Shown here: piece after piece, positions 3,240 to 51,669 of the stretch
Layout: every line of letters starts with the position of its first letter
How positions within the stretch are numbered: position 1 is the first letter of the stretch
Origin: an uncultured bacterium
Lineage (GTDB): Bacteria > Lernaellota > Lernaellaia > Lernaellales > Lernaellaceae
DNA: 64,000 nucleotides
Assembly (NCBI GenBank): GCA_964511015.1
Contig: CAZEDX010000014.1
Location: forward strand, 10,979-74,978
Direction: 5' to 3'
Notes under the pieces: model-generated
Databases searched by the model: none
Seen by the model: the letters and a program-made list of their open reading frames with translations, nothing else
What the model was told of the DNA's origin: nothing
Program-made: the position numbers and the translations under genes

Positions 3240-3422
3240 TGTCGAAGCCTCCCGTTTCCTCGCGTTTGAGAGGGGCCGCTTTCCCCGGTTCGGCAATCAC
3301 GTTTGTATAGCAGTTCCCCAACCACAAAAATTTTTGTTCGCCTCCAAGCTATCTAACATCTTTTTGCCCGTCAACCAACGAAAGCAGCGCCGGCGGCCGG
3401 TGTTGGCGGGGGTAAATAATAC

Positions 3423-10137: not shown

Positions 10138-10311
10138 CGGGATCTCCTCGTCAAACGGCCTGCGGTTCGGCATTCTAAAGGCGGCTTTTGCGGCTGGCAA
10201 ACCACCCCCGTCCGGTGGCCAGCCGCCGCAAAATCCGTTAATGTCACCCCAACGCGAACCGGCCCGGCCGGGTTCGCGCCGACGAATCAGTGAACATCCC
10301 GGGAGAATGGC

Positions 10312-24322: not shown

Positions 24323-25054
24323 GTGGTTCTCCTGTACAACGACGCGGACACGCTCGGCCTAGATATCTCTGACGCCATTCTGGAAAAGGACCATTCCGGT
24401 TGGTCGATACTCACTAATGACCGTTTCGAGATCCGTCGCAGGGAAACCAGCGGCCATTTTACGTTCGTAGACAAAACGATTTCAGACCTGAAACATTTCC
24501 CAGAGGGCGAAGAGCCGGTGACTGAAGAAGACCTGACAAACAAATCGATCGATTTGTTGCAGTCGCTCGACGTTCCTTCAGACGAAATCCACGACATTTC
24601 GGTGAAGCGGATCATCGATCAAGCAGAGGATGAATTCGGCTTCGATGTCGGAGATCGTTTAACGGCCGCTTTTCTGGTGTATGTCGACCGCGTGATAGCA
24701 AACACACCGGTCGAAGGATCGTACGCCAAACTGTTGTTCACGACCGAAGGGCGCCTGATAAAAGTGAGCACTAGGTGGCGGAACGTGACCGGGCAAGCAA
24801 TTGACATATTGCCGATCATTGAAGAAGAACTACTTCGCAATACCGCATTGGCTGTTTCTGCCAAAAGCCTTCTTCATGGTAAGGTTGACGTGTTCTATGG
24901 TGGGTATGCCTATGTCGAGGAATTTGGTGAAGACGCGGTCGAACAAAAAACCTTTGACCTGCATTTCGTTTTTCGTTACGCGACGGCTGATTCGCCATTG
25001 ATGTCTGGCGTATTGAATGCGGTGATGGAATCCGCGCTTGCGGGAGGAGTCTGA
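24323..25054 (+). CDS. Hypothetical protein (island)
   Basis: 243-aa acidic ORF, with start/stop overlap with the next gene (ATGA at 25051-25054). Confidence 0.5.
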   Translation: MVLLYNDADTLGLDISDAILEKDHSGWSILTNDRFEIRRRETSGHFTFVDKTISDLKHFPEGEEPVTEEDLTNKSIDLLQSLDVPSDEIHDISVKRIIDQAEDEFGFDVGDRLTAAFLVYVDRVIANTPVEGSYAKLLFTTEGRLIKVSTRWRNVTGQAIDILPIIEEELLRNTALAVSAKSLLHGKVDVFYGGYAYVEEFGEDAVEQKTFDLHFVFRYATADSPLMSGVLNAVMESALAGGV

Positions 25055-25539
25055 TGAAAGCCCGGTGCAGCCTCATCCTTCTAGGTCTCGTACTTATGAT
25101 TGGACAAGAAGCCATCGGCAACCCGATCCAACTTGGCGTCATCGAGGACGCGTTCCAGTTCAAACAGAACGTGTGCCTGGTCTTCCAAGGCTATTTTTCC
25201 AGTGGACCCTACCGTTTGGAGCGTACGATGGACAGTCAGACAATACGCATCATGGACGACTGGGAGATACCGGCGGAAGATCCGCTGAAGGAATGCGGGG
25301 ACTACCGTCTCTATATCTTCGAAGACGCATGCGTACCAGCCGGCCAAGCGTTGTACACCCTGTTCCAGAAGATGCCCAGCGGCTGGGACAATGCCGGTTC
25401 CGAAACCATTCAAGTTGAAGACAGCGGTGAGGAATGCGGCAACGACGACGACTGCGCGGCGCTGATCGATCCGGACGAATACCTGCCGTGTAATTTGGAC
25501 GACGACGACAACGACAACGATGACGGGTGCGGGTGTTGA
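25054..25539 (+). CDS. Small secreted protein with poly-Asp/Asn tail ending GCGC (island copy of the tail family)
   Basis: Signal peptide MKARCSLILLGLVLMIGQEAIG. Tail ...CNLDDDDNDNDDGCGC then TGA. Confidence 0.65.
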   Translation: MKARCSLILLGLVLMIGQEAIGNPIQLGVIEDAFQFKQNVCLVFQGYFSSGPYRLERTMDSQTIRIMDDWEIPAEDPLKECGDYRLYIFEDACVPAGQALYTLFQKMPSGWDNAGSETIQVEDSGEECGNDDDCAALIDPDEYLPCNLDDDDNDNDDGCGC

Positions 25540-26981: not shown

Positions 26982-27725
26982 GTGGGAAGGTCGATGCACG
27001 TCGTCTGGCAAACCTGGCACGAGCCCATCGGCGCGGCTGTCGCGTTGAACGAAGACCCCGATGGCGACGGCACGGCGGTGACGATGAACATTAGAATGCC
27101 GGGCCAGTACTTCGACGCGGAGACCGGCCTCCACTACAACTGGCACCGGTACTACGATCCGGCGGTGGGGAGGTATGTGCAGGCGGAGGTGCCACACCAC
27201 GATCAATCAGTGATCAATCCGTTCATCTATACGGGCAACAATCCGTTGAATTGGGCAGACAAGAGCGGATGGAGAGTACAACCAGGCTATGATTGCGTTA
27301 CCTTTTTGAAAGCCGGCAATCCCGATTCCTTCTGGGCGCTGTTTCCTCTTCTAAGTGACCCAACTCTTGATGCTTATGCCTGCAGTTGGGATTGTCCAAA
27401 AGGACTCACCGTCACTGTTTGCGATGACATCTATCCAAATAATCGACCTGATCCGGCTGCTTCTGCACTAAGATTACCCGACGGAAGTTGTGAGTTGAAC
27501 CTCAGCCGCGATTTCTTCCGGGAACGCACCAATCTAGATGAAGTCGAACGGTCTTGTCTAATCATGCACGAACAATGTCACCTATCAAAGTACACTAGGG
27601 AGGACACGGAGTGTTGGGCGGATGCGGTCCAAGCCGGGTGTCTTACCAGCCGCGTCGAAGTGTTTCAGGAACGCTTGGCTAAATGCCTAATTGGTGGTCC
27701 ACCGGGTCCTCCTTGTGTGCGTTAG
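26982..27725 (+). CDS. Orphan RHS-repeat core C-terminus fused to a variable C-terminal toxin domain
   Basis: PGQYFDAETGLHYNWHRYYDPAVGRYVQAEV...NPFIYTGNNPLNWADKSG matches the end of the RHS repeat-associated core domain. It is followed by a ~150-aa Cys-rich unique domain. The ORF opens just after a stop, with no upstream RHS body. Confidence 0.7.
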   Translation: MGRSMHVVWQTWHEPIGAAVALNEDPDGDGTAVTMNIRMPGQYFDAETGLHYNWHRYYDPAVGRYVQAEVPHHDQSVINPFIYTGNNPLNWADKSGWRVQPGYDCVTFLKAGNPDSFWALFPLLSDPTLDAYACSWDCPKGLTVTVCDDIYPNNRPDPAASALRLPDGSCELNLSRDFFRERTNLDEVERSCLIMHEQCHLSKYTREDTECWADAVQAGCLTSRVEVFQERLAKCLIGGPPGPPCVR

Positions 27726-27753
27726 TCGGTGGAGAACGTGCGAATGAGCAATC

Positions 27754-28251
27754 ATGATGACTGACTTACGAGTTCTAGTCCGCCATCTCTGTGAATCGGC
27801 GTGCTGGGGTCCCTCGGAACCGGCGGCGTGGTTCTGTCGGTATTTTATCCGAAACTATGGCTGGCAACTGGTGCTCGCGGGGCTGGCGACCGGAGTGTTT
27901 GTGCATACGCTGGTCTGCACCGGGTGGATAGTTGGCAGGCGCCAACGTCCGTATGTTCGATGGCACTATTTCATTCTCAAACTGGTGACCTGGCTGGTTG
28001 TGCCCTACGGAGCGACCAATGTCTTTGGCTTTCTTGTTCCGGACCAACATCGTCCGTGGTTTGGTCCGAACAATGAGCTGCTGATTTGCGCTGTCTATCT
28101 CGCGGTCAGGGTGCCGGTCGTCTTGTTCGTCCTGCGCAAAAAGGATGTGGTTCCTTTCGAGTTCGCGGCGGCGATGGTCGAGCCATTTCTGATGTTGTCG
28201 ATCATGAAATGGATCATTGCCAATGTCTTCCCGGCGTGGGGTCTGACCTAG
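27754..28251 (+). CDS. Small membrane protein, putative RHS-toxin immunity protein
   Basis: 165 aa, 4 TM. Immediately downstream of the RHS C-terminal gene. Paralog of the next gene. Confidence 0.55.
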   Translation: MMTDLRVLVRHLCESACWGPSEPAAWFCRYFIRNYGWQLVLAGLATGVFVHTLVCTGWIVGRRQRPYVRWHYFILKLVTWLVVPYGATNVFGFLVPDQHRPWFGPNNELLICAVYLAVRVPVVLFVLRKKDVVPFEFAAAMVEPFLMLSIMKWIIANVFPAWGLT

Positions 28252-28275
28252 CGGATGCTGTTCAAGGAGTGACCT

Positions 28276-28713
28276 TTGTTCGATTGGCTATATTTTTGGT
28301 TCATTCGTAGCGACGGTTGGCAAGCCATGGTCGCCGGTGTGATGGGTGGTCTGGCGGTCCAGGCATTGGTCAACGGTATGTGGCGGGCTTACCACCGCAG
28401 TTGGCCGAAAATCGGGTGCGTTTTCTATTTTGCCAAGCTGACAACTTGGCTTCTTGTCCCGTACAACCTTCTCTCCTGGTACGCGTTGGGGATTGGGACC
28501 ATTGCGAACTACTACGATGGCTACCGAGGTTTCTTTCTTATCCTCCAATACGCACTCATTCGAATTCCTGTGCTAGCGTTCGTTGCGAAGCGAAAAGACT
28601 TTGTTGTTTTCGATCTGATTTCCATCGTGTTCGAAGCGGCAATCGTTCATGCCTTGTACGGTTGGATACTGGTTCACATCTATCACTTCAACGTCGCGTC
28701 TTTGATGCAGTGA
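28276..28713 (+). CDS. Small membrane protein, paralog of 27754-28251 (second immunity-like gene)
   Basis: Shared blocks KL[VT]TWL[VL]VPY and RKKDVVPFEF / KRKDFVVFDL. Same TM topology. Confidence 0.55.
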   Translation: MFDWLYFWFIRSDGWQAMVAGVMGGLAVQALVNGMWRAYHRSWPKIGCVFYFAKLTTWLLVPYNLLSWYALGIGTIANYYDGYRGFFLILQYALIRIPVLAFVAKRKDFVVFDLISIVFEAAIVHALYGWILVHIYHFNVASLMQ

Positions 28714-28991: not shown

Positions 28992-30470
28992 ATGAAGACA
29001 AAAGCTTTGTATGTGTTTGTGTTATTGGTGGTTTTCGTTGCATCGGCAGCGGTGGTCGGCGGCTGCGGTGGGAAGTCGGAAAAGCCGAAAGACCTGAAGC
29101 CCACCCCCGAAGTGGTCGAGGGCGAGGGCGGCCCGCAGATCCCCGGCGCGACCGGCTATTCGGACATTGCCGAACGGGCGGTGAAAAGCGTGGTCAATAT
29201 TTCCTCGACCAAGGTGATCCGCCAGCAGGGCCAGCCCAATCCGCTGTTCAATGACCCTGTGTTTCGGCGCTTTTTCGGCAACCCGTCATTTGGCGGCCCG
29301 CGCGAGCGGCGCGAGCGCGCACTGGGTTCGGGCGTGATCGTCAGCAAGGACGGCTACATCCTGACCAACAACCACATGGTCGCCGACGCGACCAAGGTAA
29401 TGGTGCAGTTCAATGACGGCCGCGAGGTCGAGGCGAAAATCGTCGGCACCGACGAGAAGACCGACCTGGCCGTGATTAAGGTGGAAGAGAAAGAACTCGA
29501 ACCGCTCCCGCTAGGCGATTCCGACCAGCTTCGCCTGGGCGAGGTCGTGCTGGCTATCGGCAATCCGTTCGGCCTGGGCAACACGGTGACCATGGGCATC
29601 GTCAGCGCCAAGGGCCGCACGAACATGGACATTCTCGACTACGAGGACTTCATTCAGACCGACGCGGCGATCAACGTCGGCAACTCCGGCGGCGCGCTGA
29701 TAAACACGCGCGGCCAGCTCGTCGGCATCAACACCGCGATCTTCTCGCGCAGCGGCGGTTCGGAAGGCGTCGGCTTCGCCATTCCGATCAACCTGGCGCG
29801 TTCGGTGATGAACGACCTGGTGCAGTACGGCGAAGTCCGGCGCGGCTACGTCGGCATCTTCGTGCAAGACGTCAATCCGGGCCTGGCCGAACACTTCGGG
29901 CTCGACAAGCCGACCGGCGCGCTGGTCAGCGATGTGGCGGCCAACAGCCCCGCGGCCGAGGGCGGCCTGCAGCGCGGCGACATCATTCTCGAATACAACG
30001 GCAAAGAAGTGCCGAACGCGACGCAGTTGCGCAACACCGTGGCGCAAACCGAAATCGGCAGTGAGGTGGCGCTGGTGGTGCTGCGCAACAAGAACAAGAT
30101 CGATCTGAAGGTGAAGGTGGCCCGCCGTCCGGCCGATGAGGCGACCGCCAACCGCCAGCCGCAGATCGAACCGCCGTCGAACGCCAACGTGCGCGTTGGC
30201 TTCGACGTGACCGATCTGTCGCCGTTCATCATTCAGCGCTTCCAGTTGCCGCCGAACCTGCGCGGCGTGGTGGTGACCAACGTGGTGCCGGACAGCCCCG
30301 CCGCCGAGGCCGGGCTGGAAACGCGCGACGTGATCACCGAAGTGAACGGCCGCCCGGTCAACGACGGCCGCGAGTTCTCGCAGATGCTCAAGAACGCCGG
30401 CAAGCATGCCGTGCTGCTGGTCTACCGCGAAGGCGGCACGATCTACGTCGATCTGCCGCTGGCGCAGTAA
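28992..30470 (+). CDS. degP: DegP/HtrA-family periplasmic serine endoprotease with two PDZ domains
   Basis: Trypsin-like domain with catalytic block GNSGGALIN and two PDZ domains. Signal/lipobox MKTKALYVFVLLVVFVASAAVVGGC. Confidence 0.9.
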   Translation: MKTKALYVFVLLVVFVASAAVVGGCGGKSEKPKDLKPTPEVVEGEGGPQIPGATGYSDIAERAVKSVVNISSTKVIRQQGQPNPLFNDPVFRRFFGNPSFGGPRERRERALGSGVIVSKDGYILTNNHMVADATKVMVQFNDGREVEAKIVGTDEKTDLAVIKVEEKELEPLPLGDSDQLRLGEVVLAIGNPFGLGNTVTMGIVSAKGRTNMDILDYEDFIQTDAAINVGNSGGALINTRGQLVGINTAIFSRSGGSEGVGFAIPINLARSVMNDLVQYGEVRRGYVGIFVQDVNPGLAEHFGLDKPTGALVSDVAANSPAAEGGLQRGDIILEYNGKEVPNATQLRNTVAQTEIGSEVALVVLRNKNKIDLKVKVARRPADEATANRQPQIEPPSNANVRVGFDVTDLSPFIIQRFQLPPNLRGVVVTNVVPDSPAAEAGLETRDVITEVNGRPVNDGREFSQMLKNAGKHAVLLVYREGGTIYVDLPLAQ

Positions 30471-30477
30471 GCGGTCC

Positions 30478-31137
30478 TTGACCATTCGCGCCACGAAGAT
30501 CCAGAGCCGGGCGGAAGAGGTCGTCAACGGCATCACGCACGGGCTCGGCGCCGCTCTCGCTGTCGTCGCGCTCGTGCTGTTGATCGTGTATGCCGTCTGG
30601 TACGGCGACACCTGGCGCGTGGTCGCGGTGAGCATCTACGGCGCGACGTTGGTGCTGTTGTTTCTCGCTTCGACGCTCTACCATCTGTTCACTCGCCCGC
30701 GCGCTAAAGAGGCGCTGCACCTGGCCGATCACGCAGCGATCTATGCGCTGATCGCCGGCACGTATACGCCGTTTCTGCTGGTCAACATGCGCGGGGCCTG
30801 GGGTTGGTCGATGCTTGGCGTGATCTGGGGCCTGGCCGTGACCGGCATCACGCTCACGCTGGCGCAGATCAAACGCCTGCAGAAGGCCCCGGTGCTGATC
30901 TATCTCGGCATGGGCTGGCTGATGATCGTCGCGATCGTGCCGCTGATGCGTTCGGTGGCCAGAGGCGGACTGCTCTGGCTCGCTGCCGGCGGCCTGCTCT
31001 ACAGCTTGGGCGTGATCTTCTATCGCTGGAAAGGCCTGCGCTTCAATCATGCCGTCTGGCATGTCTTCGTGCTGGCCGCCAGCGCCTGCCATTTCTTCGC
31101 CGTGCTGGGCTACGTGGTGCTTGCGCCGGGGGTATAG
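30478..31137 (+). CDS. Hemolysin-III / PAQR-family membrane protein
   Basis: 7 TM. Conserved VNGITHGLGAAL and HAVWHVFVLAASACHF blocks. TTG start proposed just after the degP stop, because the in-frame ATG at 30406 would overlap degP by 65 nt. Confidence 0.7.
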   Translation: MTIRATKIQSRAEEVVNGITHGLGAALAVVALVLLIVYAVWYGDTWRVVAVSIYGATLVLLFLASTLYHLFTRPRAKEALHLADHAAIYALIAGTYTPFLLVNMRGAWGWSMLGVIWGLAVTGITLTLAQIKRLQKAPVLIYLGMGWLMIVAIVPLMRSVARGGLLWLAAGGLLYSLGVIFYRWKGLRFNHAVWHVFVLAASACHFFAVLGYVVLAPGV

Positions 31138-31204
31138 GGCGGCGGCAACAAACGGCCTGCATTGGCCATCAGCCACACTCCCCATACCTACGTTTTTACC
31201 GCTC

Positions 31205-31227
31205 CATTACGAAACGTGATGTTTCGT
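31205..31227 (+). promoter_or_regulatory. Conserved upstream element CATTACGAAACGTGA with dyad ACGAAAC-GTGAT-GTTTCGT; putative enhancer-binding-protein site for the pilin-like gene
   Basis: Same 15-mer recurs at 32253-32267, upstream of the paralog. Each lies ~105 bp upstream of a sigma54-type promoter. Confidence 0.45.
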
Positions 31228-31310
31228 CGATTTCGTCTCGGGTGGCGGACGCGGTGCCGGCGGCGCGCAACCTTCTGACATCAGGTGACAAATTCCTCCG
31301 AAACGGTGTT

Positions 31311-31327
31311 TGGCACGGGTCCTGCTT
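31311..31327 (+). promoter_or_regulatory. sigma54-type promoter TGGCACgggtccTGCtt (GG-N10-GC)
   Basis: Matches TGGCAC-N5-TTGCW with correct spacing. 33 bp upstream of the ATG at 31360. Confidence 0.55.
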
Positions 31328-31359
31328 TTATTCCCCGCACAACACGGAGGAGCGAGAAA

Positions 31360-32145
31360 ATGAGGCAGCGTCGATCGGACCGAAACGGTCAAAAAGGTTT
31401 CACTTTGACTGAACTTCTGGTGGTGATCGCGGTGATCGGCATTCTCGCCGGCATCGCGCTTCCGCGCCTGGTCGGTTATCGCGACGAGGCGGACAAGGTG
31501 TTTGCCCTCGACCAGCTCCGCGATTTGCAGGCGCTGGCGACGGTGTATTACCACGAACACGAGCAGCCGCCGACGATCGAGGAGCTGAGCGCGCAATACA
31601 ACCGCTCGCACAACGACAAGATCATCGGCCGGTGGGCCGTGATGTCGGTCGGCTACGGGCAGAGCTCGGTAAAGTTGGCTGAAGGAGGCGTCAACGGTTA
31701 CCAGCCGGCTTACATCATCTGCAGCACGTACGAGATCCGTAACGTGGCGTATGTGTACGGCCTCGACGACAAACCGCCTGAGGTGGCGAAGGTGGGCTCC
31801 GACCCGATCGGTATCGGCCAGTGCGGACCGAGCACGGGGTCGGCGCCTGCCCAACCGGCGGCCCCGGTACCGACGCCCGAGCCGCCGGCCAACCCCCCGG
31901 CCAGTCCGCCGCCGACCAACAATCCGCCGGAGCAGCCCCCCGGCAATCCGTCTGGCGGCAACCCGCTGTCGAACGAATGCAACGTCGACGAGCAGTGCCC
32001 GTGTGAAAACAATTGGCCGAACCATGGTCAGTACGAGAACTGTGTGGTCCACTTGGCCAACGAATGCTGGAAAGCCGGCAAGATCAGCAAGGAAACCCGC
32101 CAGCAGTGGGTCACCGATGCAGCCCATAGCATTTGCGGGATGTAG
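31360..32145 (+). CDS. Type IV pilin-like / pseudopilin protein with Pro-rich linker and a Cys-rich C-terminal module
   Basis: Prepilin cleavage/methylation motif KG|FTLTELLVVIAVIGILAGIAL. GGAGG RBS. C-terminus CPCENNWPNHGQYENCVVHLANECWKAGKISKETRQQWVTDAAHSICGM. Confidence 0.8.
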   Translation: MRQRRSDRNGQKGFTLTELLVVIAVIGILAGIALPRLVGYRDEADKVFALDQLRDLQALATVYYHEHEQPPTIEELSAQYNRSHNDKIIGRWAVMSVGYGQSSVKLAEGGVNGYQPAYIICSTYEIRNVAYVYGLDDKPPEVAKVGSDPIGIGQCGPSTGSAPAQPAAPVPTPEPPANPPASPPPTNNPPEQPPGNPSGGNPLSNECNVDEQCPCENNWPNHGQYENCVVHLANECWKAGKISKETRQQWVTDAAHSICGM

Positions 32146-32357
32146 CGCGGCGAGAGTATACCTCCCACGGTACGGCCACTGGGTCTGGAGGGAGACCCGG
32201 TGGCCGTCGCGTTTTTGTTTCCGATAGCCCATTCCGTCGGAAAGAAACGATGCATTACGAAACGTGAGACTGTTTCCCGCGCTTCGACGGGCACGGATAC
32301 TCGCCTTTCATGGCCAACCTGCCGAAATTTCTATATCGGATGGACGACTCCGATGTT

Positions 32358-32373
32358 TGGCATGAGTTCTGCC
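32358..32373 (+). promoter_or_regulatory. sigma54-type promoter TGGCATgagttcTGCca
   Basis: GG-N10-GC spacing. ~25 bp upstream of the paralog start. Confidence 0.5.
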
Positions 32374-32396
32374 ATACATAGCCACTGGAGGGGCAG

Positions 32397-33173
32397 GTGT
32401 TGTTGAAATGTTGCCAGGGGCAGAAAAGAGCTAGCGGCTTCACATTGGTGGATGTCCTGCTGGCCATCACGGTGGTGGGGATCATCACCGCCGGCGCGCT
32501 GAACCAGGGATTGGTCCAGCGTTTGCGGGCGAGTACCCGGTCTGCTGTGAGCGAATTGAATGCCTTGCGCGATTTGGCCGACCAGCACTATCTCCTCAAC
32601 GGCCGGGCTCCGACGGTCGGCCAGTTGCGCACCATGTACCACAACCGCCACCACAAACCGGTGGTCGGCCGCTGGGTCGTGCTCGATGGCAAATCGCTGC
32701 CGCTGCCCGAAGACGGCATCCGCGGCTACCACCCGGCTTACGTCATCTGCAGCACGTTTCGGATCCCGAACGCCGACTACGTCTACGTGATGGACGGGCA
32801 CCAGCCGGAATTCGCCGGCGTCGGCGACGACCCGCTCGGCGTCGGCCAGTGCGGACCGGCGGCGTGGGCCTATGCCGAGGGCGTCGATCCTTACCAGCCC
32901 GAGCCGGAAGTGCTTCGCCCGTCGGTAACCGTGTACAAGGCGGAGCCGCTGCCGAAGGTCAAACCGCGGCTGCTGGAAGAGCCGAAGGTCGAGGAAGTCG
33001 ACGTATGCGCCCTCGACCGCCGCTGCCCCTGCCAGTCCACCTGGGCCAACCGCGGCGAATACGAAGACTGCGTGAAGGACGTGGCTCGCGAATGCAACGA
33101 ATCGGGCCGCATCGGTCAGGACGTCCGCGAGCAGTGGCTCGCCGAAGCACGCGCCAGCATCTGCGGTCTGTGA
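32397..33173 (+). CDS. Type IV pilin-like protein, paralog of 31360-32145
   Basis: SG|FTLVDVLLAITVVGIITAGAL. Shares GYHPAYVICSTF and the C-terminal CPCQSTWANRGEYEDCV...ECNESGRIGQDVREQWLAEARASICGL module. Start is GTG at 32397 or TTG at 32403, with a GGAGGGG RBS. Confidence 0.75.
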   Translation: MLLKCCQGQKRASGFTLVDVLLAITVVGIITAGALNQGLVQRLRASTRSAVSELNALRDLADQHYLLNGRAPTVGQLRTMYHNRHHKPVVGRWVVLDGKSLPLPEDGIRGYHPAYVICSTFRIPNADYVYVMDGHQPEFAGVGDDPLGVGQCGPAAWAYAEGVDPYQPEPEVLRPSVTVYKAEPLPKVKPRLLEEPKVEEVDVCALDRRCPCQSTWANRGEYEDCVKDVARECNESGRIGQDVREQWLAEARASICGL

Positions 33174-33323
33174 GCGCGGAAAGAGTCCGGGGGATCCGAG
33201 ACCCGGCGCCCGGCACCTGATTCCCCAAGCCTCAAGTCCTCATCTCTTCGTCATGCCGTCCATCCGTTGACACCGCCTCCGGCATGACCGAATCTGAAGC
33301 CTGAACCACCGGCGAGGAAGACG

Positions 33324-34706
33324 ATGAATCCGGCGATCTATGCGGGTCGGCGCGCGAAGCTGCGCGAGTTGGTGAGCGAGGGAGCGATTCTGTTGTTGGG
33401 CAACGCGGAGGCGCCGCGGAACTACGCGGCCAACGCGTATCCGTTTCGACAGGATGCGACGTTCCTCTACTACACCGGGCTGGCGGTGCCGCAGCAGGCG
33501 CTGCTGATTCTGCCCGACGGCCACGAGATTCTGTTCGGCGAGCCGGTGACGATGGACGACGTGATCTGGATGGGGCCGCAGCCGGCGGTGCACGAGTATG
33601 CGGAAACGGCGAACATCGGCGACATCGGCAACCTCGAGTGGCTCAAGCAGACACTCGACAAACTGCGCGCACAGAACGTGACGATCCACTATCTGCCGCC
33701 CTATCGCGGCGAGCGCACGCTGTGGCTGGCGAAGCTGCTCGACTATGCGCCGGCGCACGTGGCCGAGGGCGTGTCGACGGCGCTGGTGCAGGCGGTGGTG
33801 AAGCAGCGCAGTCTCAAGTCGCCGGAGGAGATCGTCGAGATCGAAAACGCGATCGGCGCGACGGCGGCGATGATGCAGGTGGCGTTGCAAACCATTCGGC
33901 CGGGCGTGCCCGAATCGATGGTCGCCGGGTTGATGCAGGGCGTGGCCCTGGCGTTGGGCCGGCAACAGGCGTTCCTGCCGATCGTTTCGGTGCGCGGCGA
34001 GGTGCTGCACAACAACTACTACGGCAACGTCATGCAGCCCGGGCATCTGCTGCTGATCGACTGCGGCGCCGAATCGCCGCGCGGCTACGCCGGCGACATC
34101 ACGCGCACCTTCCCGGTCAGCGGCCAGTTCACCGAGCCGCAGCGCGAGATTTACGAAGTCGTGCTGCGTGCGCAACAGGCGGTCATCGACACCGCCTCGC
34201 CCCGTGTGACCAACCGCGATCTGCATTTCGTCGCCGCGCGCGCCATCGCCGCCGGGCTGAAAGACCTCGGCCTGATGCGGGGCGATGTCGACGAAGCGGT
34301 GCAGGCCGGCGCGCACGCGCTGTTCTTCCCGCACGGCATCGGCCACATGCTGGGGCTGGACGTGCACGACATGGAAGACCTGGGCGACGCGGTGGGCTAC
34401 GCGCCGGGCGACGAGCGCTCGCCGCAGTTCGGGCTGTCGTTCCTGCGCCTGGCCCGCGCGCTCGAGCCGGGCTTCGTCATCACCGACGAGCCGGGTGTCT
34501 ACTTCATTCCGCCGCTCATCGACCAGTGGACCACGGAGAAACGCCACGAGTCGTTCATCAACTACGAGCTGCTCGCGCGGTACCGCGACTTCGGCGGCAT
34601 CCGTATCGAAGACGATCTGCTGATCACCGACACCGGCGCGCGCGTGCTCGGCACCGGCATTGTCAAAGCGGTGAAAGACATCGAAGCGGCGATGAAGAGG
34701 GGGTAG
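33324..34706 (+). CDS. pepP: Xaa-Pro aminopeptidase (M24B)
   Basis: 460 aa. M24 metal-ligand blocks including HGIGHMLGLDVHD. Confidence 0.85.
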   Translation: MNPAIYAGRRAKLRELVSEGAILLLGNAEAPRNYAANAYPFRQDATFLYYTGLAVPQQALLILPDGHEILFGEPVTMDDVIWMGPQPAVHEYAETANIGDIGNLEWLKQTLDKLRAQNVTIHYLPPYRGERTLWLAKLLDYAPAHVAEGVSTALVQAVVKQRSLKSPEEIVEIENAIGATAAMMQVALQTIRPGVPESMVAGLMQGVALALGRQQAFLPIVSVRGEVLHNNYYGNVMQPGHLLLIDCGAESPRGYAGDITRTFPVSGQFTEPQREIYEVVLRAQQAVIDTASPRVTNRDLHFVAARAIAAGLKDLGLMRGDVDEAVQAGAHALFFPHGIGHMLGLDVHDMEDLGDAVGYAPGDERSPQFGLSFLRLARALEPGFVITDEPGVYFIPPLIDQWTTEKRHESFINYELLARYRDFGGIRIEDDLLITDTGARVLGTGIVKAVKDIEAAMKRG

Positions 34707-34726: not shown

Positions 34727-35077
34727 CTATTTCTTTTCCGCCACGCAGCCATCCGCCGGCGTACACACCAAGGGCGAAGTTTCGCCGCCGCGTTGCACGG
34801 TCAGGCGGTAACCTTCGTTGACCGCGTCAAAACGGAAGGTGATCTGCGGATCGTCGGTCAACGTGGCGTCCAGCGCCAGCAGTTCCTCGAGCGAAGACGC
34901 AAAGCGCGCCTCGCCGCCGGGCGCCGATTGATAGAGCATCTCCTGCGCCGTGGCCGCGCGCTGCGCGTGTTGCCGCACCGCATCGGGCACGTTGGCGGCC
35001 GGCGCGGATTTGCCGCAGCCCGTCGCACACGCCAGGCAGCAGATCAAGCAGACGGTAAATTTCAGGTGGCGAAACAT
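34727..35077 (-). CDS. Hypothetical lipoprotein
   Basis: Signal/lipobox MFRHLKFTVCLICCLACATGC. 116 aa. Confidence 0.5.
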   Translation of the reverse strand: MFRHLKFTVCLICCLACATGCGKSAPAANVPDAVRQHAQRAATAQEMLYQSAPGGEARFASSLEELLALDATLTDDPQITFRFDAVNEGYRLTVQRGGETSPLVCTPADGCVAEKK

Positions 35078-35385
35078 CGGCGCTTTCTAGCACAGGGACG
35101 TCGTCGAACTCAACCGGTCAAGACTCTTCGGCGGCGGTGTGCGGATGCGAGAAAATCCGGAGGCATCGCCCCGCGAACCCCTCCTCCCCTTGCAAGGGGT
35201 TCATTCAGTTTGGTTCCTCCGGACGATAGATCAATCTAGCAAAACCTTTGCCATCTTTCGGGTAAAACGCTAAGTCCAATAAGCGACTGACTTTTTCTCC
35301 GAATCGGTTTTCGCAATCGTCCAAGAATGGCCTACCGTGACGACATTTCGCGCGACGAAATGCCGCTTTTTGTCACTGTGTGTTG

Positions 35386-38212: not shown

Positions 38213-40249
38213 CTAGCAGCCGCACCCACCACTATCGTCATCGTCGTCACCAGCCGCGTCATCGTCATCCGCGTCGGTGTCGTCGTCTGCGCTGTCGTCG
38301 TCTGTCGCCTCGCCCGCCTGCAGATACTCGATCACGTTGACGAGTAGGCGTTGCGCCGGCATGGAATAGGCGTCGGGCGCCTGGACGCCGAAGGCCCACA
38401 GGGCGTACTTCCCGTCTTGGATCGCCAGCGGATAGTGACTCAGATAGGTCAGGTCGCGGCCCAGGAATTCCACGCCTGCCGGCGAACTGGCGTCGTCGTG
38501 CAACCCGAGATACGCGGCCGCCGCGGCCAGCACGTCGAAATCGCTGCCGTCGAGACCCAATTCAAACGGGTCATGCCACACCGCATGATCCAGCGACTGC
38601 GGCGCAAACCCTACGGCCGGATCCAGCTCCAAGCAGTTCTCCGCCGACAGGTACTGCTCGGTGTAGTCGAACACGTGCACGCCGCCGTTGTTGGCAACGA
38701 TCGGTTTGCCGGAGTTGATCAACAGCTTGGCTTTGTCTTCGGTCCACGCCTCCGCGCCGGCGTTGTCGTCGACCATGAACAGCTCGTATTTCGCCAGATC
38801 GGCTTTGCCGCCGAGCGCGCCGATCTCCAGCAAATCCACCGTATAGCCGACGCTGGCCAGGAACTGCTGGAACAGCAGCGCCTGCACATCGTCGCCGGCG
38901 TACACGTAGCCGATGTCCACCGGCTCGCTCTGCACGTATTCGATCAGGTTGACCAACAGGCGCTGGCCGGCGGAGGTGTACATCGACGGACCCATCACCG
39001 CGTAGGCCCATACGGCGTAGTGGATGTTTTCAACCGCCACCGCGTAGTAGTCGGTGTAGCTCTCGCACTGACCGAGGAACTGCACGCCGGCCGGATTCGA
39101 GCCGTCGTTCTGCAGACCCCGAATCGTCATCGGCGAGATGAGCATGGGGAGCGGACCGCCGTTATCGGACTGGTCGACCTCATACGGCTCGTGCCAGATC
39201 GGGTGCGCATCGGCCGCCGGTTCCACTGCCTGCTGGTCGACGACGCCGGCAAAGTGATTCGCGCCGAGGTAGCCGTCGGCGTACGCCAGCAACGACAGGC
39301 CGTCGCCGTCGCCGATGATCGGCTTGCCGGTGTTGAGCACGAGCGCAGCGCGCTCCGCCGTCCAGTCCAGCGTGGTGTCGCTGTCCATAAAGAACACTTC
39401 GATTTCCGCCAGGTCGGGCGCGGCGTCGAGTTCGGCGATTTGCAGCAGTGACACGCGGTAGCCTTCGCCATTGAGAAAGAGGGCGAAGTCTTCCGCGCGC
39501 GAAAGGTTGACGCTGTAGACGTAGGCGATGTCGGTTTCCTCGTCGCCCGTGTCGTCGTCAGCCGCGTCATCGTCGGCCGCGTCATCGTCGGCCGCGTCAT
39601 CGTCGGTCACATCATCATCCGCCGTATCGTCGTCGGCGGTGTCGTCGTCGATCACGTCGTCGTCGATGGAATCGTCGTCGATCACGTCGTCGTCGACCGA
39701 GTCGTCATCCACCAGCGGTGACGCCTCCACCGTCACATCGTCGACGCCCCAGCTCGAAGCCAGCGCGCCGCCGTAGTATGAGAAATAGAAACGGATGCGC
39801 ACGTCGGGCTCGCCGTCCGCCTGCGGAATGGCGATGGTCTGGATCTCGCCGGTCACCGTGCCGTCGGTGGTGTAGACCGGCTGCCAGGTTTCGCCGCCGT
39901 CCAGCGAGATGCTCGCCTGGCCCATGCTGATGGCGCCGGTCTGGGTGAAGTAGTGGTTGAACGACAGCTCCGCGCCGGTGTAGCCGGTCAGATCGATCGC
40001 GTCGGATTCGATTGCCGCGTTCCATACCGGCAGGACACAGCCGGAGCGAACGACTTCGGCGTATTGATCGTCACCGAAATAGGCAATCAGGGCGCTGGCC
40101 GTACCAGGCGTGTGCCACTTGCAGGATGAGGTTTGAAAACCGGTGAATTGCCCCGCGCCGTCAGAGAAATTTTCGAGAAAAACGGTTTCCGCGGAAGCCG
40201 AAATGGCAGTAACCAGGATGACAATCAGGGCGAACCACAGATTTCTCAT
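38213..40249 (-). CDS. Secreted protein with an internally duplicated domain, an internal poly-Asp linker, and a C-terminal poly-Asp + GCGC tail
   Basis: Signal peptide MRNLWFALIVILVTAISASA. Central DDDSVDDDVIDDDSIDDDVIDDDTADDD... separates an N-terminal domain from two homologous domains (SGKPIIGDGDG... / SGKPIVANNGG...). Tail ...DDDDAAGDDDDDSGGCGC then TAG. Confidence 0.7.
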   Translation of the reverse strand: MRNLWFALIVILVTAISASAETVFLENFSDGAGQFTGFQTSSCKWHTPGTASALIAYFGDDQYAEVVRSGCVLPVWNAAIESDAIDLTGYTGAELSFNHYFTQTGAISMGQASISLDGGETWQPVYTTDGTVTGEIQTIAIPQADGEPDVRIRFYFSYYGGALASSWGVDDVTVEASPLVDDDSVDDDVIDDDSIDDDVIDDDTADDDTADDDVTDDDAADDDAADDDAADDDTGDEETDIAYVYSVNLSRAEDFALFLNGEGYRVSLLQIAELDAAPDLAEIEVFFMDSDTTLDWTAERAALVLNTGKPIIGDGDGLSLLAYADGYLGANHFAGVVDQQAVEPAADAHPIWHEPYEVDQSDNGGPLPMLISPMTIRGLQNDGSNPAGVQFLGQCESYTDYYAVAVENIHYAVWAYAVMGPSMYTSAGQRLLVNLIEYVQSEPVDIGYVYAGDDVQALLFQQFLASVGYTVDLLEIGALGGKADLAKYELFMVDDNAGAEAWTEDKAKLLINSGKPIVANNGGVHVFDYTEQYLSAENCLELDPAVGFAPQSLDHAVWHDPFELGLDGSDFDVLAAAAAYLGLHDDASSPAGVEFLGRDLTYLSHYPLAIQDGKYALWAFGVQAPDAYSMPAQRLLVNVIEYLQAGEATDDDSADDDTDADDDDAAGDDDDDSGGCGC
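39541..39720 (-). repeat. 15-bp tandem codon repeats encoding (DDDxx)n internal linker
   Basis: e.g. GCCGCGTCATCGTCG x3 followed by related units. Confidence 0.85.
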
Positions 40250-43889: not shown

Positions 43890-46013
<2,124 letters not shown>

Positions 46014-46121: not shown

Positions 46122-46267
46122 AAAATTACGAAATCTAAGTTTTATGCATACGAGAATGCGTCCAAAAACGAAATATTGCGTTACGACGACGGAAAAGCAA
46201 TATAGAATTCACCAAGATTGCCCAATATTGGAACATTCGTCCGGGAAGAGGGTATTTGAAATGCAAC

Positions 46268-46308: not shown

Positions 46309-48423
46309 TTAATTGGCAGCCGCAGCAGGTGTCGCGGGGCCTAGTAGAACGACGGCTTCCGCCGCTTCGCGCCGCGCCTTCAACAGTGCCCGAAACGCGA
46401 CAAAACCCGACGCCGGCATCGTCGTGCTGGTGTACTCCGTTATGTCTTCAAAGGTCAGGGTGTTGCCTTCGAGTTTCCATGCCGCGCGGTAGCGGCACCA
46501 GGGGCTGTCGGCGCTGGTCGGCGGCGGCAGGGATTCGACCTTCATCGACGCCGGCAGATGGAAGCGGTAGGTGTTCTTCACCTGGTGCAATCCCGACCGT
46601 TCGAAGGGGTAGAGTCGTTCCGGATTTACCTCGGCCAGATCGCCGAAACGTAGGTCGAACAGCCGGATGATGGAATACGTCCCGCCCGAGCCTACGGCCA
46701 GCATCGGCGTTTCCGAAACGCGGTGCAAGATGACCGGGTCGCGCAACTCGTTTATGCCGTCGACGCGGAATTCCATCAGCCGGTTGCGAAATGCGAACGA
46801 ACGCACCGCGCGGGTCATGCGGTCGCGTATCTGTTCGGCTTCCAGATGGCGATAGCCGCGGTACGGGGTCGCAAAGCCGCCGACGAGACGATGCTCCTCG
46901 GTGATGCGGGCGCCGCCGTCAGGTTGAAGTTGAATGTCATACACGTAGTCGGCCGCGTTGGCCGAAGCGGGCAATGCCGGCGTCCGCTGCAGCCGGCCGC
47001 TGTCAAGATCGACGTAGAACGAATCGTTTTCGGCGACATCGAGCATGCCGAAGATGCGGTTGCTGTCACCCAACGACGCGAATACCGGTTCCGCCCCAGG
47101 CAGGTCGAAGCGCAACATGGGCGTGTCGGCCAAACCCAACGTGGGAATCTGCTCCACCGGAAGATGGCTGATCCGGCTCGACAACAGTCCGAGGTGAACC
47201 GGCAGCCCAACGGCCTTGGCCAGCGCATAGAGCAATACCGTGCGATCCAACTGATTGCCGTGCCGATCGGCCAGGGTGGATGCCGGCGGCTTGGGCAGGC
47301 CGTCACGGTCCCACATGCTGACTTCGCCGTCGCGCACCTCGCGCAGCACGAAGGCATACAACGCCGCCGCAGCTTCGGCCCCTTGCCGGCCTTCGGTCAA
47401 TTTCTTGGCTTGCGCCTCCACGGCGGGGTCGTCCGCCAACCGCGGCGTCAACGCCTGACGGTAGTTCGCAGCCAATGTGCCCCAGTCGACCTTCCGGCCC
47501 ACGGCGAACATTGGCGCGACTTCCGACCAGGGCACCATCATCGGTTCCGACAGCAACTGCGGCAGCGCCGTCGCCTGGTACATCAACGTGCGGCGGCCGG
47601 CGGCGGTTTCGTCGGTCTTGGTGACCTGGTCGCCGAGGTTGCGCTCCAACAACGCCAGCGGCATGCCGGCGGGCACATCGATGATCGACCGGATGACCTT
47701 GGTCGGCCCTTCGAAAGCAAACACCCGCTGCGTGTAGAGGTTCCAGAGGTCATCGACCTTGTTCTCGGCGGAAAACTGGAAATAGATGAAGCCGCCGACC
47801 TTGCCGCCCGGAATGGCGATCTGCACCAGCCGCTGCTGGCTGCCGTCGGGCCGGCCGTCGCCCAGCGCACTGTCCTTCACCGAACCGGCGGACAGAATGC
47901 TGATCGAGCCCTGAGGCGAGATCGAGTAACCGAAGTCGACCTTCGCGCGCCCCCGCAGAGCGTTGTAGGTGTAGGTGACGTTAGCGTTGTCCAGGCCGGC
48001 CTGGGTGTTGATGCGCTCGAGGCGGCGCCAGAACGTGGTGACCTTGCCGGCGTCGAGGCGGGTGACGCGTTCATCGAGCAGAATCGACGTGGGATAGCGC
48101 TGGTCGGTCGGTGTCGTGCCGGCTTGCTCGATCAGGCGCAGGACCTCGCGGTCGCGCAGATCGGCCAGGCGCGATAGCGTCGTATCGCCAACGCGCTGGC
48201 CCAGGTCGATGCGCACGACGTGGCCGGCGGGGAAGATCTTCTCCTCGCCGGAAAGAGTCACGAAGCGCACTTCGTTGAAGCCGACTTCCACCAGTCGGCC
48301 CGGCAATTCCTCACCGTTTTGCAACACCAGATTGTCCGGACAGGCCGGATCGACGCGATAGGCCGGCGTAGCGCACGCGGCCAACGTGAGCAGCAGCGCC
48401 AGCAGCAATAAACGGCGTTTCAT
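46309..48423 (-). CDS. DUF3857-type lipoprotein with degenerate (Cys-less) transglutaminase-like core
   Basis: Lipobox LLTLAAC. Paralog of the next gene, but the catalytic block is RHGNQLDRT where the paralog has YGDCTDKA. Confidence 0.55.
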   Translation of the reverse strand: MKRRLLLLALLLTLAACATPAYRVDPACPDNLVLQNGEELPGRLVEVGFNEVRFVTLSGEEKIFPAGHVVRIDLGQRVGDTTLSRLADLRDREVLRLIEQAGTTPTDQRYPTSILLDERVTRLDAGKVTTFWRRLERINTQAGLDNANVTYTYNALRGRAKVDFGYSISPQGSISILSAGSVKDSALGDGRPDGSQQRLVQIAIPGGKVGGFIYFQFSAENKVDDLWNLYTQRVFAFEGPTKVIRSIIDVPAGMPLALLERNLGDQVTKTDETAAGRRTLMYQATALPQLLSEPMMVPWSEVAPMFAVGRKVDWGTLAANYRQALTPRLADDPAVEAQAKKLTEGRQGAEAAAALYAFVLREVRDGEVSMWDRDGLPKPPASTLADRHGNQLDRTVLLYALAKAVGLPVHLGLLSSRISHLPVEQIPTLGLADTPMLRFDLPGAEPVFASLGDSNRIFGMLDVAENDSFYVDLDSGRLQRTPALPASANAADYVYDIQLQPDGGARITEEHRLVGGFATPYRGYRHLEAEQIRDRMTRAVRSFAFRNRLMEFRVDGINELRDPVILHRVSETPMLAVGSGGTYSIIRLFDLRFGDLAEVNPERLYPFERSGLHQVKNTYRFHLPASMKVESLPPPTSADSPWCRYRAAWKLEGNTLTFEDITEYTSTTMPASGFVAFRALLKARREAAEAVVLLGPATPAAAAN

Positions 48424-50495
48424 TGCGGCACCTCCCTGGCGAACGCCCGGCGGGCAAAGAAGGATTCAATATCGATCAACGTCTGGCGGTAGGCGGTGTA
48501 CTGATCCGGGCTGACCCGCGTGTCGCGATTGACGAAGCGGTAGACCAAGCGGAACCCGTCGGCGGTCCGCTCGTAGCGGCCGTCGAAATCGAGCAGCGGC
48601 GTGCGTACGACCTTGGGCTGCGGCATGTCCTCCAGTTTCCAATTCGGTGGCAGGTGCACGTTGAACACCTGGCTTTCGGTGTACTGGGTCGGCGTCAGCA
48701 ATGCCGTCCGCCGCGTCTCGTTGTCCACCTGTGCGAAGCGGTCAGGCAGTTCCGGCAGATCCACCACCCACATGCCGCCGGTCTTTTTGGCCAGCATCGG
48801 CAAGCGGTAGACCAACGTGGTGCGCAACGGCTTGTCCGGATCCTGCACGTTCTCGTCGTTGAAGCTAATCAGTTCCGCGCCCGGGCCGCGATCGAGCACC
48901 TGCTCGCGCAGATCCTTTTCCCGCGTGCGTGGATCGATCGATTCGAGATAGCCGCGGTTGGCGGCTTCGAAGATGCCCATCGAGGTGTCGACGCGGGTTA
49001 CGGTCGCCGCGCCCTGCGCGTCGAATCTCACATCGATTTCGATGTTCGATCGGCTGCTGTCAGGCGGCGGCATGTCAATCCAACCCACCGTCCGGCCTAG
49101 CGCATCGACGTAAGGCTGGCCGTGGTCGTCCCAGCGGAAGAAAGGGTAGCGGAAGGTTTCGGCGGTGGCGTCGAGGAAGAACGACCGCCCGTTGAGGAAG
49201 ACCTTGGTGATCGCGTGGTTGCCGGCGAGGTTGGGCACGGCGTAGAGTTCGTGCGCAAAGCCGAAGGTGCCCAGCACCACTGGATGGGCTTCCACGCCGA
49301 TTGCCTTGAGCATCGTCGCCATCAGAATGGCCTTGTCGGTGCAATCGCCGTAGCCGTTGGCGAGGGTCACTTCGGCCGGATGACCGGTGAAACCGGTACC
49401 GAAGTCGGTCTTGATCGAGATGTACCGGATCTTGCGCTGCGCATACTGGTAGATGCGCGCGATCTTCTGTTCGACGTCCGTCGCGTCGCCGACTGCGGCC
49501 GCCACCGCGCGCTTGACCGAGTCGGTTACCACGATCCGGGTGCGGTAGAACTCGGTCAGCAGGTCGAAGATCGGGTCCCACGTTTCGATTACCCGCGCGC
49601 GCAGGGTGGGGGCATATTCCAACTCCGGCGCCATGTGCGGTTCGGTTTCCAGCGGTGCCACGTCGGTCATCGCCCAACGGTAGGTGGTGGAACCGTCGGG
49701 GTTGTCGGTGACCGTCGGCGGCTGCTGGGCGGCGGGCATGTTGCGCGTTTCCCAGAACAGCTTTTTCGCGGCCGGCACGACGATATCGACGCTCGAGAGC
49801 GCCACCGGCGAGGTCGACTGGAAGTAGTATTCGGGAAAGAAGAAGTCGGGATGGATCGGCTTGACCGTTTTGTTGCGGTACCAGTACTCGACGATGTCGC
49901 CGAGGCGCACCTCGGGGATCATAAGCTGGTAGGAGACGCCGCGGTTGAAGAACAGCGTGCCGGCGTAAGGTTCGGTCTTGGTCACGAATTTCGCCCCGGC
50001 CGCCTGGAATGTGCCGTCAGGGTGCACCACCACGCCGAACGGCCCGGTCAGGCGCTCGCGGTTCGGATCGACCCAGTTGCTGGTGCGCGCCCAGGCCCGG
50101 GTCTTTTCTTTCAACACCAAGCCGGTGAAGTGGTAGTCGTACCAGTTGGTGCCGTCGGTTTCGAGCCGGTAGACCCCGATGTCTTCCAAAATGACGCCGG
50201 GCCGGTCGGGGTACTTCTGCGCCAGTTCCCGTCCCTGGGCGAACAGCTTGGCGTACCGCGCCGGGTCGTAGCGCCAATTGATCTCACCGATTTCCACCGG
50301 CGCGGAGAACCGCACTTCGTTCACCGTTTCACGGGCAATACGGCGCCCGTCGGGCAGCGTAAACAGCTTGCCGTCAAAGGAAACGGCCGGCACCCGCAAT
50401 TCATCGCCGTTTTGCAGAACGATGACGGTCTCGGCCAAGGCCGGCAGTACCGCCAGCACCAAAATCAGCAAGAGGAAGCGAAATCCGCGTCGCAT
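48420..50495 (-). CDS. DUF3857 + transglutaminase-like cysteine-protease superfamily protein
   Basis: Signal peptide. Transglutaminase-core-like GYGDCTDKAILMATMLKAIG. 4-nt overlap with the downstream paralog. Confidence 0.6.
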   Translation of the reverse strand: MRRGFRFLLLILVLAVLPALAETVIVLQNGDELRVPAVSFDGKLFTLPDGRRIARETVNEVRFSAPVEIGEINWRYDPARYAKLFAQGRELAQKYPDRPGVILEDIGVYRLETDGTNWYDYHFTGLVLKEKTRAWARTSNWVDPNRERLTGPFGVVVHPDGTFQAAGAKFVTKTEPYAGTLFFNRGVSYQLMIPEVRLGDIVEYWYRNKTVKPIHPDFFFPEYYFQSTSPVALSSVDIVVPAAKKLFWETRNMPAAQQPPTVTDNPDGSTTYRWAMTDVAPLETEPHMAPELEYAPTLRARVIETWDPIFDLLTEFYRTRIVVTDSVKRAVAAAVGDATDVEQKIARIYQYAQRKIRYISIKTDFGTGFTGHPAEVTLANGYGDCTDKAILMATMLKAIGVEAHPVVLGTFGFAHELYAVPNLAGNHAITKVFLNGRSFFLDATAETFRYPFFRWDDHGQPYVDALGRTVGWIDMPPPDSSRSNIEIDVRFDAQGAATVTRVDTSMGIFEAANRGYLESIDPRTREKDLREQVLDRGPGAELISFNDENVQDPDKPLRTTLVYRLPMLAKKTGGMWVVDLPELPDRFAQVDNETRRTALLTPTQYTESQVFNVHLPPNWKLEDMPQPKVVRTPLLDFDGRYERTADGFRLVYRFVNRDTRVSPDQYTAYRQTLIDIESFFARRAFAREVPQ

Positions 50496-51582: not shown

Positions 51583-51669
51583 CGTCGGCCGGCCGGGCCG
51601 CATTTTCCATTTTTTTCGCTTCATTCTATGATAGCCGCCGGTGTTTCCCCGCTCGCAAAGGAGAACCCC

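Follow-up and report, generated by a model that had tools for sequence, protein, structure and literature searches.

We analysed a 64,000-nucleotide stretch of DNA (hereafter the window; contig CAZEDX010000014.1) from an uncultured bacterium of the Lernaellaceae and focused on two genes in it, termed here A and B, whose products resemble type IV pilins (Table 1). An initial annotation, made from the letters of the sequence, had described the two as paralogous type-IV-pilin-like genes, and this description was borne out: the proteins are 38% identical over their full length (E 1e-59), begin with prepilin leaders and are predicted to share a pilin-like fold. Both end, after a low-complexity linker of ~45 residues, in a 57-residue module with six cysteines, which confirms in both proteins the shared cysteine-rich C-terminal module reported earlier. 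Because a GC-rich terminator hairpin follows gene A, we regard A and B as separate transcription units. Each is preceded by a sigma-54-type -24/-12 promoter and, further upstream, by the same 15-mer.

The N-terminus of A consists of a leader, MRQRRSDRNGQKG, a cleavage site, G/FTLTE (the slash marks the cut), and a mature start, FTLTELLVVIAVIGILAGIALP, whereas that of B reads QKRASG/FTLVDVLLAITVVGII, with the motif G/FTLVD, in which Asp replaces Glu at +5, and lacks Pro22. A scored above the curated cut-offs of PF07963 (N_methyl; 36 bits vs 21.2) and TIGR02532 (35.6 bits vs 16.3). By its leader and these scores it belongs with the type IV pilin or class III signal peptide proteins, among which B is borderline. 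Phe1, Glu5, Gly14 and Pro22, the canonical alpha-1 residues of major pilins, can all be read in the alpha-1 helix of A. A full-length AlphaFold2 model of A, built from a three-sequence alignment, placed helices at residues 16–67 (a 52-residue alpha-1) and 73–84 and four strands within residues 92–143, with predicted local distance difference test (pLDDT) scores of 80–92, and its N-terminal part is thus modelled as a small pilin fold. Residues 10–112 of A matched solved subunits, namely Geobacter PilA-N (1.9e-11), GspG (1.3e-6) and Neisseria PilE (1.5e-5). Two cysteines of the pilin domain, Cys121 and Cys155, were invariant across 8 members of the family described below. Together with the model, they place A among proteins with a long alpha-1 helix on an antiparallel beta-sheet and a C-terminal disulfide region.

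The linker of A received pLDDT scores below 50 and contains 18 prolines in 45 residues. That of B, with 8 prolines in 46 residues, is rich in Glu, Lys and Val, so that the "Pro-rich linkers" of the initial annotation describe A well and B less so. In the model of A, the helical C-terminal module appears to sit on a long disordered tether and is not packed on the pilin domain.

We characterized the module by exhaustive searching with a profile made from three sequences, which matched 1614 representative proteins at E≤1e-3 and 78 at E≤1e-10; the 107–121 bits obtained by A, B and P0002 are partly self-matching, as the profile was built from these proteins. A detailed survey covered 259 proteins with 310 modules. 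Only 7 of the 259 were pilins, and the other 252 included ordinary secreted proteins and lipoproteins. A signal-like N-terminus was present in 161 of the 259, and the N-terminal parts were diverse (beta-propellers, DUF642, CarboxypepD_reg, PKD or unrecognisable). The module lay ≤12 residues from the C-terminus in 195 of the 259, was present in two to six copies in 29, and followed a thrombospondin-type-3-like DxDxDG repeat in 192 of the 310 cases. The module is a widespread, undescribed, portable domain that is not specific to pilins, and the earlier view of it as a new pilin head did not stand. A and B qualify as modular pilins, in which a pilin module is joined to a further domain that is also found in proteins unrelated to pili. 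Since many unrelated secreted proteins carry the domain at their C-termini, its most likely role, by prediction, is binding or docking.

The initial annotation had not recognized the module, and our database searches gave the same result. No Pfam or NCBIfam model matched it when A, B and ten module proteins were scanned; the exceptions, partial and below threshold, were overlaps with the final 35 positions of PF20091 and with the TSP3 part of NF053612. Against the PDB, the best hit of a profile search had an E-value of 0.29, and Foldseek returned only generic helix hairpins (best E 3.1); no known pilin head domain was matched in these searches. A text search of the literature for the module motif found no relevant paper. 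Modelled alone from 44 aligned homologues, the module gave a confident helical structure (pLDDT 90.7; predicted template modelling score 0.76) with one short helix and two longer ones. Its consensus, GCSxxQL(C)PC...WKNHGQYVS(C)V....GLIT....IV..AAQSDCG, contains a conserved patch, W-x-N-H-G-x-Y, whose His was present in 243 of 257 modules and is replaced by Arg in B (NRGEY).

The cysteines of the module varied in pairs. Among 275 modules, profile positions 10 and 30 both carried Cys in 170, only one did in 5 and neither in 100, while positions 12 and 61 both did in 270; Cys at position 38 occurred in 10 modules, always with position 4. This pattern predicts the disulfides C213–C228, C215–C259 and C207–C236 in A, in this order, and all six cysteines are invariant within the pilin family. 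A metal-binding CPC site was also considered and dropped: we favour disulfides because the domain is extracytoplasmic and its cysteines come and go two at a time. The pilin modules clearly belong to the "WxNHGxYVSxV...AAQSDCG" C-terminal domain of secreted TSP3-repeat proteins, an unnamed domain whose carriers are annotated as "hypothetical" or "thrombospondin type 3 repeat-containing protein". The two share the helices, the PC...CG disulfide and the NHG motif. The pilin versions differ in having no preceding TSP3 repeat, in the loss of the conserved His from B, and in an internal third predicted disulfide (positions 4–38) in place of one to the TSP3 segment; outside the pilins, the presumed partner of Cys 4 is the Cys of the CPxT segment that comes before it.

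We then examined the DNA upstream of A and B. Both -24/-12 elements lie on the coding strand and have the -24 GG and -12 GC with the 10-nt spacing of sigma-54 promoters, whose pattern is TGGCAC-N5-TTGC-like. The initial annotation had placed them upstream of the genes at about -30, a distance that proved approximate, as they precede the start codons by 49 nt (A) and 39 nt (B). The upstream 15-mer was found at the distance of about 105 bp given previously, and only in these two regions: positions 31205 and 32253 were its sole matches in the window even when 2 mismatches were allowed (chance expectation 0.11), and two matches were reached in 0 of 100 shuffles. The promoter pattern TGGCAY-N6-TGC, although confined to 31311 and 32358, was expected 1.42 times, so that its count alone is not significant. 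When the upstream regions of A and B were aligned, the 15-mer and the promoter were the sole contiguous conserved blocks. The dyad symmetry ascribed to the 15-mer exists but is imperfect (TTACG-AAA-CGTGA); a perfect inverted repeat overlapping the copy of gene A, ACGAAAC-N5-GTTTCGT, is not conserved in B. A further TTTCGT copy occurs at 31231–31236 in the upstream region of A. No sigma-70-like promoter was found in 30900–33500. An integration host factor site between the upstream element and the promoter was considered and dropped, there being no convincing match by eye and no scan having been made.

For comparison, we turned to proteins built like A and B, from a leader, a pilin domain, a low-complexity linker and a six-Cys module. 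Word-indexed searches, which covered 5.8 billion proteins, returned only A, a B-like protein and four relatives, and overlooked members that came to light when the module profile was run exhaustively with HMMER; the HMMER search yielded P0002, P0014, P0016, P0140, P0142 and a fragment, P0019. The fusion is rare, with about eight members, all metagenomic, and none turned up in a pattern scan of 185,579 GTDB species, each represented by one genome. An exact-sequence look-up of A gave no match, and those of B and of the M24 peptidase gene led only to contigs of 2.6–3.5 kb; a scan of metagenomes contributed one further long context, L095. DNA around the family genes (L003, L005/L092, L006, L008 and L009/L093/L095) amounts, with the window, to six distinct loci of 42% to 62% GC, in which each family gene stands alone behind a long intergenic region.

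A -24/-12 element of the form TGGC-N8-TGC was present upstream of all eight family genes (seven sampled and an extra paralogue in L008) in these six loci, and 0 of 20000 shuffles gave a match in at least 3 of the 7 upstream regions. The GG-N10-GC promoters proposed in the initial annotation are thus backed by conservation in other organisms. An unbiased search of the -150 to -60 regions of the seven upstream sequences returned CATTACGAAA as the best shared 10-mer, with a score of 50 (null 42.9 ± 0.9, maximum 45; 0 of 200 shuffles reached 50). Elements of this type lie 101–106 bp upstream of the -24/-12 element; with the same spacing, a locus of 42% GC from another organism also has the exact CATTACGAAA, and a third has GTTACGAAA. 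In A, B, L003 and both L008 genes, the octamer TTACGAAA precedes the TGGC by 101–104 bp; elsewhere it occurs three times in 201 kb of sequence searched on both strands, which is the chance level. We regard the conserved promoter and upstream element as good phylogenetic-footprint evidence for a sigma-54 promoter with a putative activator site.

L008 holds a second, independent tandem pair of family pilins, 68% identical to each other. Each has an identical 21-mer, CATCATTACGAAAAGTTATCT, 101 bp upstream of TGGCATGAAT(A/T)GTGC; because the upstream DNA of the two copies is 82% identical, repeats within this one locus are not independent. The extra L008 paralogue has, like gene B, lost the NHG motif, so that the pairing of a canonical with a His-lost module recurs. 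Separately, this paralogue ends in ...NGCGCGW.

Two further sites in the window resemble these regulatory elements. A third sigma-54-like element, TGGCAAAGGTTTTGC, occurs at 35239–35253 (-), with a perfect palindrome, CATTTCG-N5-CGAAATG, ~100 bp upstream of it at 35344–35362; both point at a gene for a 116-amino acid lipoprotein without a Pfam match (34727–35077, -). As the half-site of the palindrome is similar to the CATTACG core found in front of the pilin genes, this gene may be a third target of their putative activator. An additional TTACGAAA lies at 46126–46133, in the intergenic DNA upstream of a type III glutamine synthetase gene (43890–46013, -); no -24/-12 element was seen near it by eye. 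The best match of this glutamine synthetase in a scan of the GTDB species genomes, in an unclassified metagenome-assembled genome, was 51% identical.

Given these results, we consider it likely that A and B are independently transcribed, modular type IV pilin-like subunits, controlled by sigma-54 and a bacterial enhancer-binding protein (bEBP), that display a ligand-binding domain. Sigma-54 promoters require an ATP-dependent enhancer-binding protein. Each gene would be read from its own such promoter, and the activator, which would be encoded elsewhere in the genome, most likely binds the CATTACGAAA-containing element ~100 bp upstream. A prepilin peptidase would cut the product after the leader Gly, after which the hydrophobic alpha-1 helix would drive its entry into a type IV filament, with the compact pilin domain and its one disulfide forming the filament surface. 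The disordered linker would keep the C-terminal module off the filament, and the module, carried on a pilus, would confer adhesion to whatever ligand the domain binds. With its Asp5, missing Pro22 and lost His, B looks like a specialised, sub-functionalised or degenerating copy.

Several observations weigh against this interpretation. No genes for pilus or type II secretion machinery, prepilin peptidase, RpoN or a bEBP were found in the window, as covered by a motif search and Pfam scans of 20 of ~50 crudely called open reading frames (ORFs); the motif search saw no pilD-, pilB-, pilC- or pilQ-like gene, and the window encodes neither a protein with a GAFTGA motif or RpoN box nor a further prepilin. 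The same genes were absent from the flanks of the six family loci, which reach 10 kb on both sides only in L095, and no pilR/pilS pair was found in the window or the related loci examined. Since such genes do not lie nearby, filament assembly and sigma-54 dependence are argued from motifs. B falls below both pilin cut-offs (PF07963 19.5 bits, TIGR02532 12.1 bits) and has Asp5. Foldseek with the full-length model gave a single weak pilin match, 5vxx_A (PilE; E 0.11), a search that the floppy linker renders uninformative. Finally, the upstream motif is weak or altered in 3 of the 7 loci (P0016, P0142 and P0140).

We also looked for a conserved neighbouring gene. Peptidase, PilZ and GGDEF/EAL genes occur near some family members, none of them consistently, and the idea was dropped. 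Two PilZ-domain genes lie directly 3′ of P0016/P0266 (L005 1264–4375/L092 11021–14132), GAF-GGDEF-EAL and REC-HD-GYP genes lie at L095 3111–5639 and 19087–20241, and an FHA-GGDEF gene lies at L092 1981–2916. Genes related to cyclic di-GMP are thus found near several family members, in a pattern that is inconsistent across loci.

The initial annotation had favoured tip- or adhesin-type minor pilins under a PilR-like regulator, and we consider it unlikely, but by no means far-fetched, that A and B are low-abundance minor pilins at the pilus tip, with a Cys-rich adhesin head and control by PilS/PilR. The absence of Glu5 and Pro22 from B is in keeping with this, as some initiating minor pilins, GspK among them, typically lack Glu5. 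The known modular pilins are minor pilins thought to be exposed at the tip (PMC8179133), and sigma-54 promoters are classical for pilin genes controlled by PilR (PMC7170775). On the other hand, A and B are monocistronic orphans outside any minor-pilin operon, A has the canonical alpha-1 residues of major pilins and best matches solved major subunits, and a 45-residue flexible tether would permit display along the filament body. Also, there is no pilR/pilS nearby, and the CATTACGAAA element is, we presume, unlike the PilR sites of Pseudomonas aeruginosa. For A itself, the alpha-1 helix, the possession of a strong promoter, a ribosome-binding site and a terminator not shared with B, and the matches to major subunits point to a major or shaft-compatible pilin, while its orphan position and the precedent of the known modular pilins point to a minor one. 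Minor or tip status is not indicated by monocistronic orphan genes and the match of A to major subunits.

We think it improbable that the proteins are pseudopilins of type II secretion, or subunits of another type IV filament (Com, MSH or Tad-like), and not subunits of an adhesive pilus. GspG (TIGR01710), the major pseudopilin of that system, was the best NCBIfam match of both proteins, and NCBI nr lists one homologue as "type II secretion system protein [bacterium]". Against GspG, however, A scored 39 bits and B 22.6 bits, short of the 88.85 that this equivalog model demands, and the match was limited to profile positions 1–64, in the alpha-1 helix that the two share. The likeness to GspG covers a similar leader and alpha-1 helix (residues 12–75); the globular domains are unrelated in sequence, and GspG lacks the C-terminal module. 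We read the NCBI name as an apparently generic label for prepilin N-termini, and a long-tethered module of extracellular type would fit a periplasmic pseudopilus poorly.

We give little credence to the notion that the 15-mer common to A and B survives from their duplication, or that it is bound by a repressor or some other regulator instead of an enhancer-binding protein, even though the two genes are paralogues and the upstream DNA of the two L008 copies is 82% identical. The remaining upstream DNA of A and B has diverged, the element recurs at the same distance in the loci of other organisms, and its spacing of ~100 bp from the -24/-12 promoter is typical of activator sites. Least credible is that the class III signal peptide serves export or anchoring only and that A and B are envelope-anchored module carriers that never polymerise: this would agree with the lack of machinery genes nearby and with the module on ordinary secreted proteins and lipoproteins, but all members keep a full pilin globular domain with its conserved disulfide, and A keeps an alpha-1 helix with Glu5, Gly14 and Pro22.

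The closest precedents for modular type IV pilin-like subunits are Streptococcus sanguinis PilB, with a vWA module, and PilC, with a lectin module (Raynaud et al. 2021, PMC8179133). In both systems, the design presumably adds a binding function to the filament. The module described here differs in being ~55 amino acids long and helical, with three predicted disulfides and no database signature; it is joined through a disordered tether of ~45 residues in place of a short loop, and it is encoded by orphan genes with sigma-54-type promoters in an uncultured bacterium without close sequenced relatives. If flexible enough, a linker could let the module be shown on the body of the filament too, and not just at its tip (PMC8179133). 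With respect to regulation, pilA is controlled by sigma-54 and PilS–PilR in Pseudomonas, Xanthomonas, Myxococcus and Geobacter (PMC7170775). A and B resemble it in having a GG-N10-GC promoter directly upstream of a pilin gene and an upstream site at activator distance, and differ in that pilR/pilS are not adjacent, that the motif with the CATTACGAAA core has no known cognate activator and that each paralogue owns a copy of promoter and site.

These findings add a comparatively supported case of pili gaining functions by the grafting of portable domains onto pilins. The combination of a small domain and a long disordered tether is an unusual design, which could decorate the whole filament. They also expose a large, unannotated family of small extracytoplasmic domains (>1600 sequence clusters), with a boundary, a confident model and a predicted disulfide map, and the pair of promoter and site gives a means of finding, in an uncultured lineage, the activator concerned and the genes that it controls. 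As a long shot, the module might be a general extracellular docking tag, displayed on pili through flexible tethers under a dedicated sigma-54 activator, with the His and His-lost paralogues, which occur as pairs in two independent loci, forming a functional heteropair. Were this so, the pili would bind the same ligand, on a surface or in the matrix, by which dozens of secreted enzymes are retained, leading to pilus-mediated kin or matrix cohesion; alternatively, module-bearing secreted proteins would be recruited to the filament, making the pilus a display scaffold.

Table 1 Genes, regulatory elements and related features (positions in the window unless a locus is named)
Feature	Position	Strand	Details
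Gene A	31360–32145	+	261 aa; modular prepilin; leader residues 1–13; pilin module to ~residue 158
Gene A linker	31834–31968	+	Residues 159–203; disordered, Pro-rich
Gene A C-terminal module	31972–32142	+	Residues 205–261
Gene B	32397–33173	+	258 aa; diverged paralogue
Gene B C-terminal module	33000–33170	+	Residues 202–258
Intrinsic terminator 3′ of gene A	32172–32217	+	15-bp stem (10 GC pairs), 6-nt loop, T tract
Upstream element of gene A	31205–31219	+	CATTACGAAACGTGA; 106 bp upstream of -24 element; putative enhancer-binding-protein site
Upstream element of gene B	32253–32267	+	Identical 15-mer; 105 bp upstream of -24 element
Sigma-54-type -24/-12 promoter of gene A	31311–31325	+	TGGCACGGGTCCTGC
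Sigma-54-type -24/-12 promoter of gene B	32358–32372	+	TGGCATGAGTTCTGC
Perfect inverted repeat	31209–31227		Overlaps gene A 15-mer
-24/-12 element of P0002			TGGCACGGGAACTGC
-24/-12 element of P0016			TGGCACGTTTAATGC
-24/-12 element of P0142			TGGCCCAAAAGTTGC
-24/-12 element of P0014			TGGCATGAATTGTGC
-24/-12 element of P0140			TGGCATAGTCCCTGC
Tandem family pilin, first	L008 3063–4083		
Tandem family pilin, second	L008 4336–5342		
GCGC-tail protein	1215–3296	-	
GCGC-tail protein	5435–7714	-	
GCGC-tail protein	7918–10881	-	
GCGC-tail protein	25054–25539	+	
GCGC-tail protein	38213–40249	-	
GCGC-tail protein	51628–53745	+	
GCGC-tail protein, homologous lineage	L095 8007–9572		
GCGC-tail protein, homologous lineage	L093 2213–3733		
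GCGC-tail protein, homologous lineage	L009 2905–4422		
GCGC-tail protein, homologous lineage	L008 10136–10942		

The neighbours of A and B are genes for an HtrA-like protease (28992–30470), a hemolysin-III family protein (30406–31137) and an M24 aminopeptidase (33324–34706). The C-terminal module is carried by no other ORF of the window or the related loci, and Rfam and tRNA scans of the window gave no matches. The window is rich in secreted peptidases (HtrA, M24, S41 and C25). The C25 (gingipain-like) peptidase at 51628–53745 (+), which has weak similarity to the type IX secretion sortase PorU, is adjoined by tandem DUF3857/transglutaminase-like paralogues at 46309–48423 (-) and 48420–50495 (-).

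At least six secreted proteins or lipoproteins of the window end in a long Asp-rich low-complexity tail followed, at the extreme C-terminus, by GCGC (ACGC in one), and proteins with such tails are also encoded in related loci (Table 1). No transmembrane segment follows the GCGC, unlike in known Cys-containing CTERM sorting signals, and no NCBIfam or Pfam model matched the tail. It has the appearance of a hitherto undescribed C-terminal tag or site of modification, and the pilins themselves may be the less unusual finding.

Lastly, the ORF at 26982–27725 contains an Rhs-core-like junction, YDPAVGRYVQAE...NPLNWADKSGW, followed by a C-terminal domain. After it come two paralogous small membrane proteins (27754–28251 and 28276–28713), 30% identical to each other and without a Pfam match. 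This region, 26982–28713, is a patch of lower GC (53–56% vs 62%) and resembles an orphan Rhs toxin tip with immunity-like genes.

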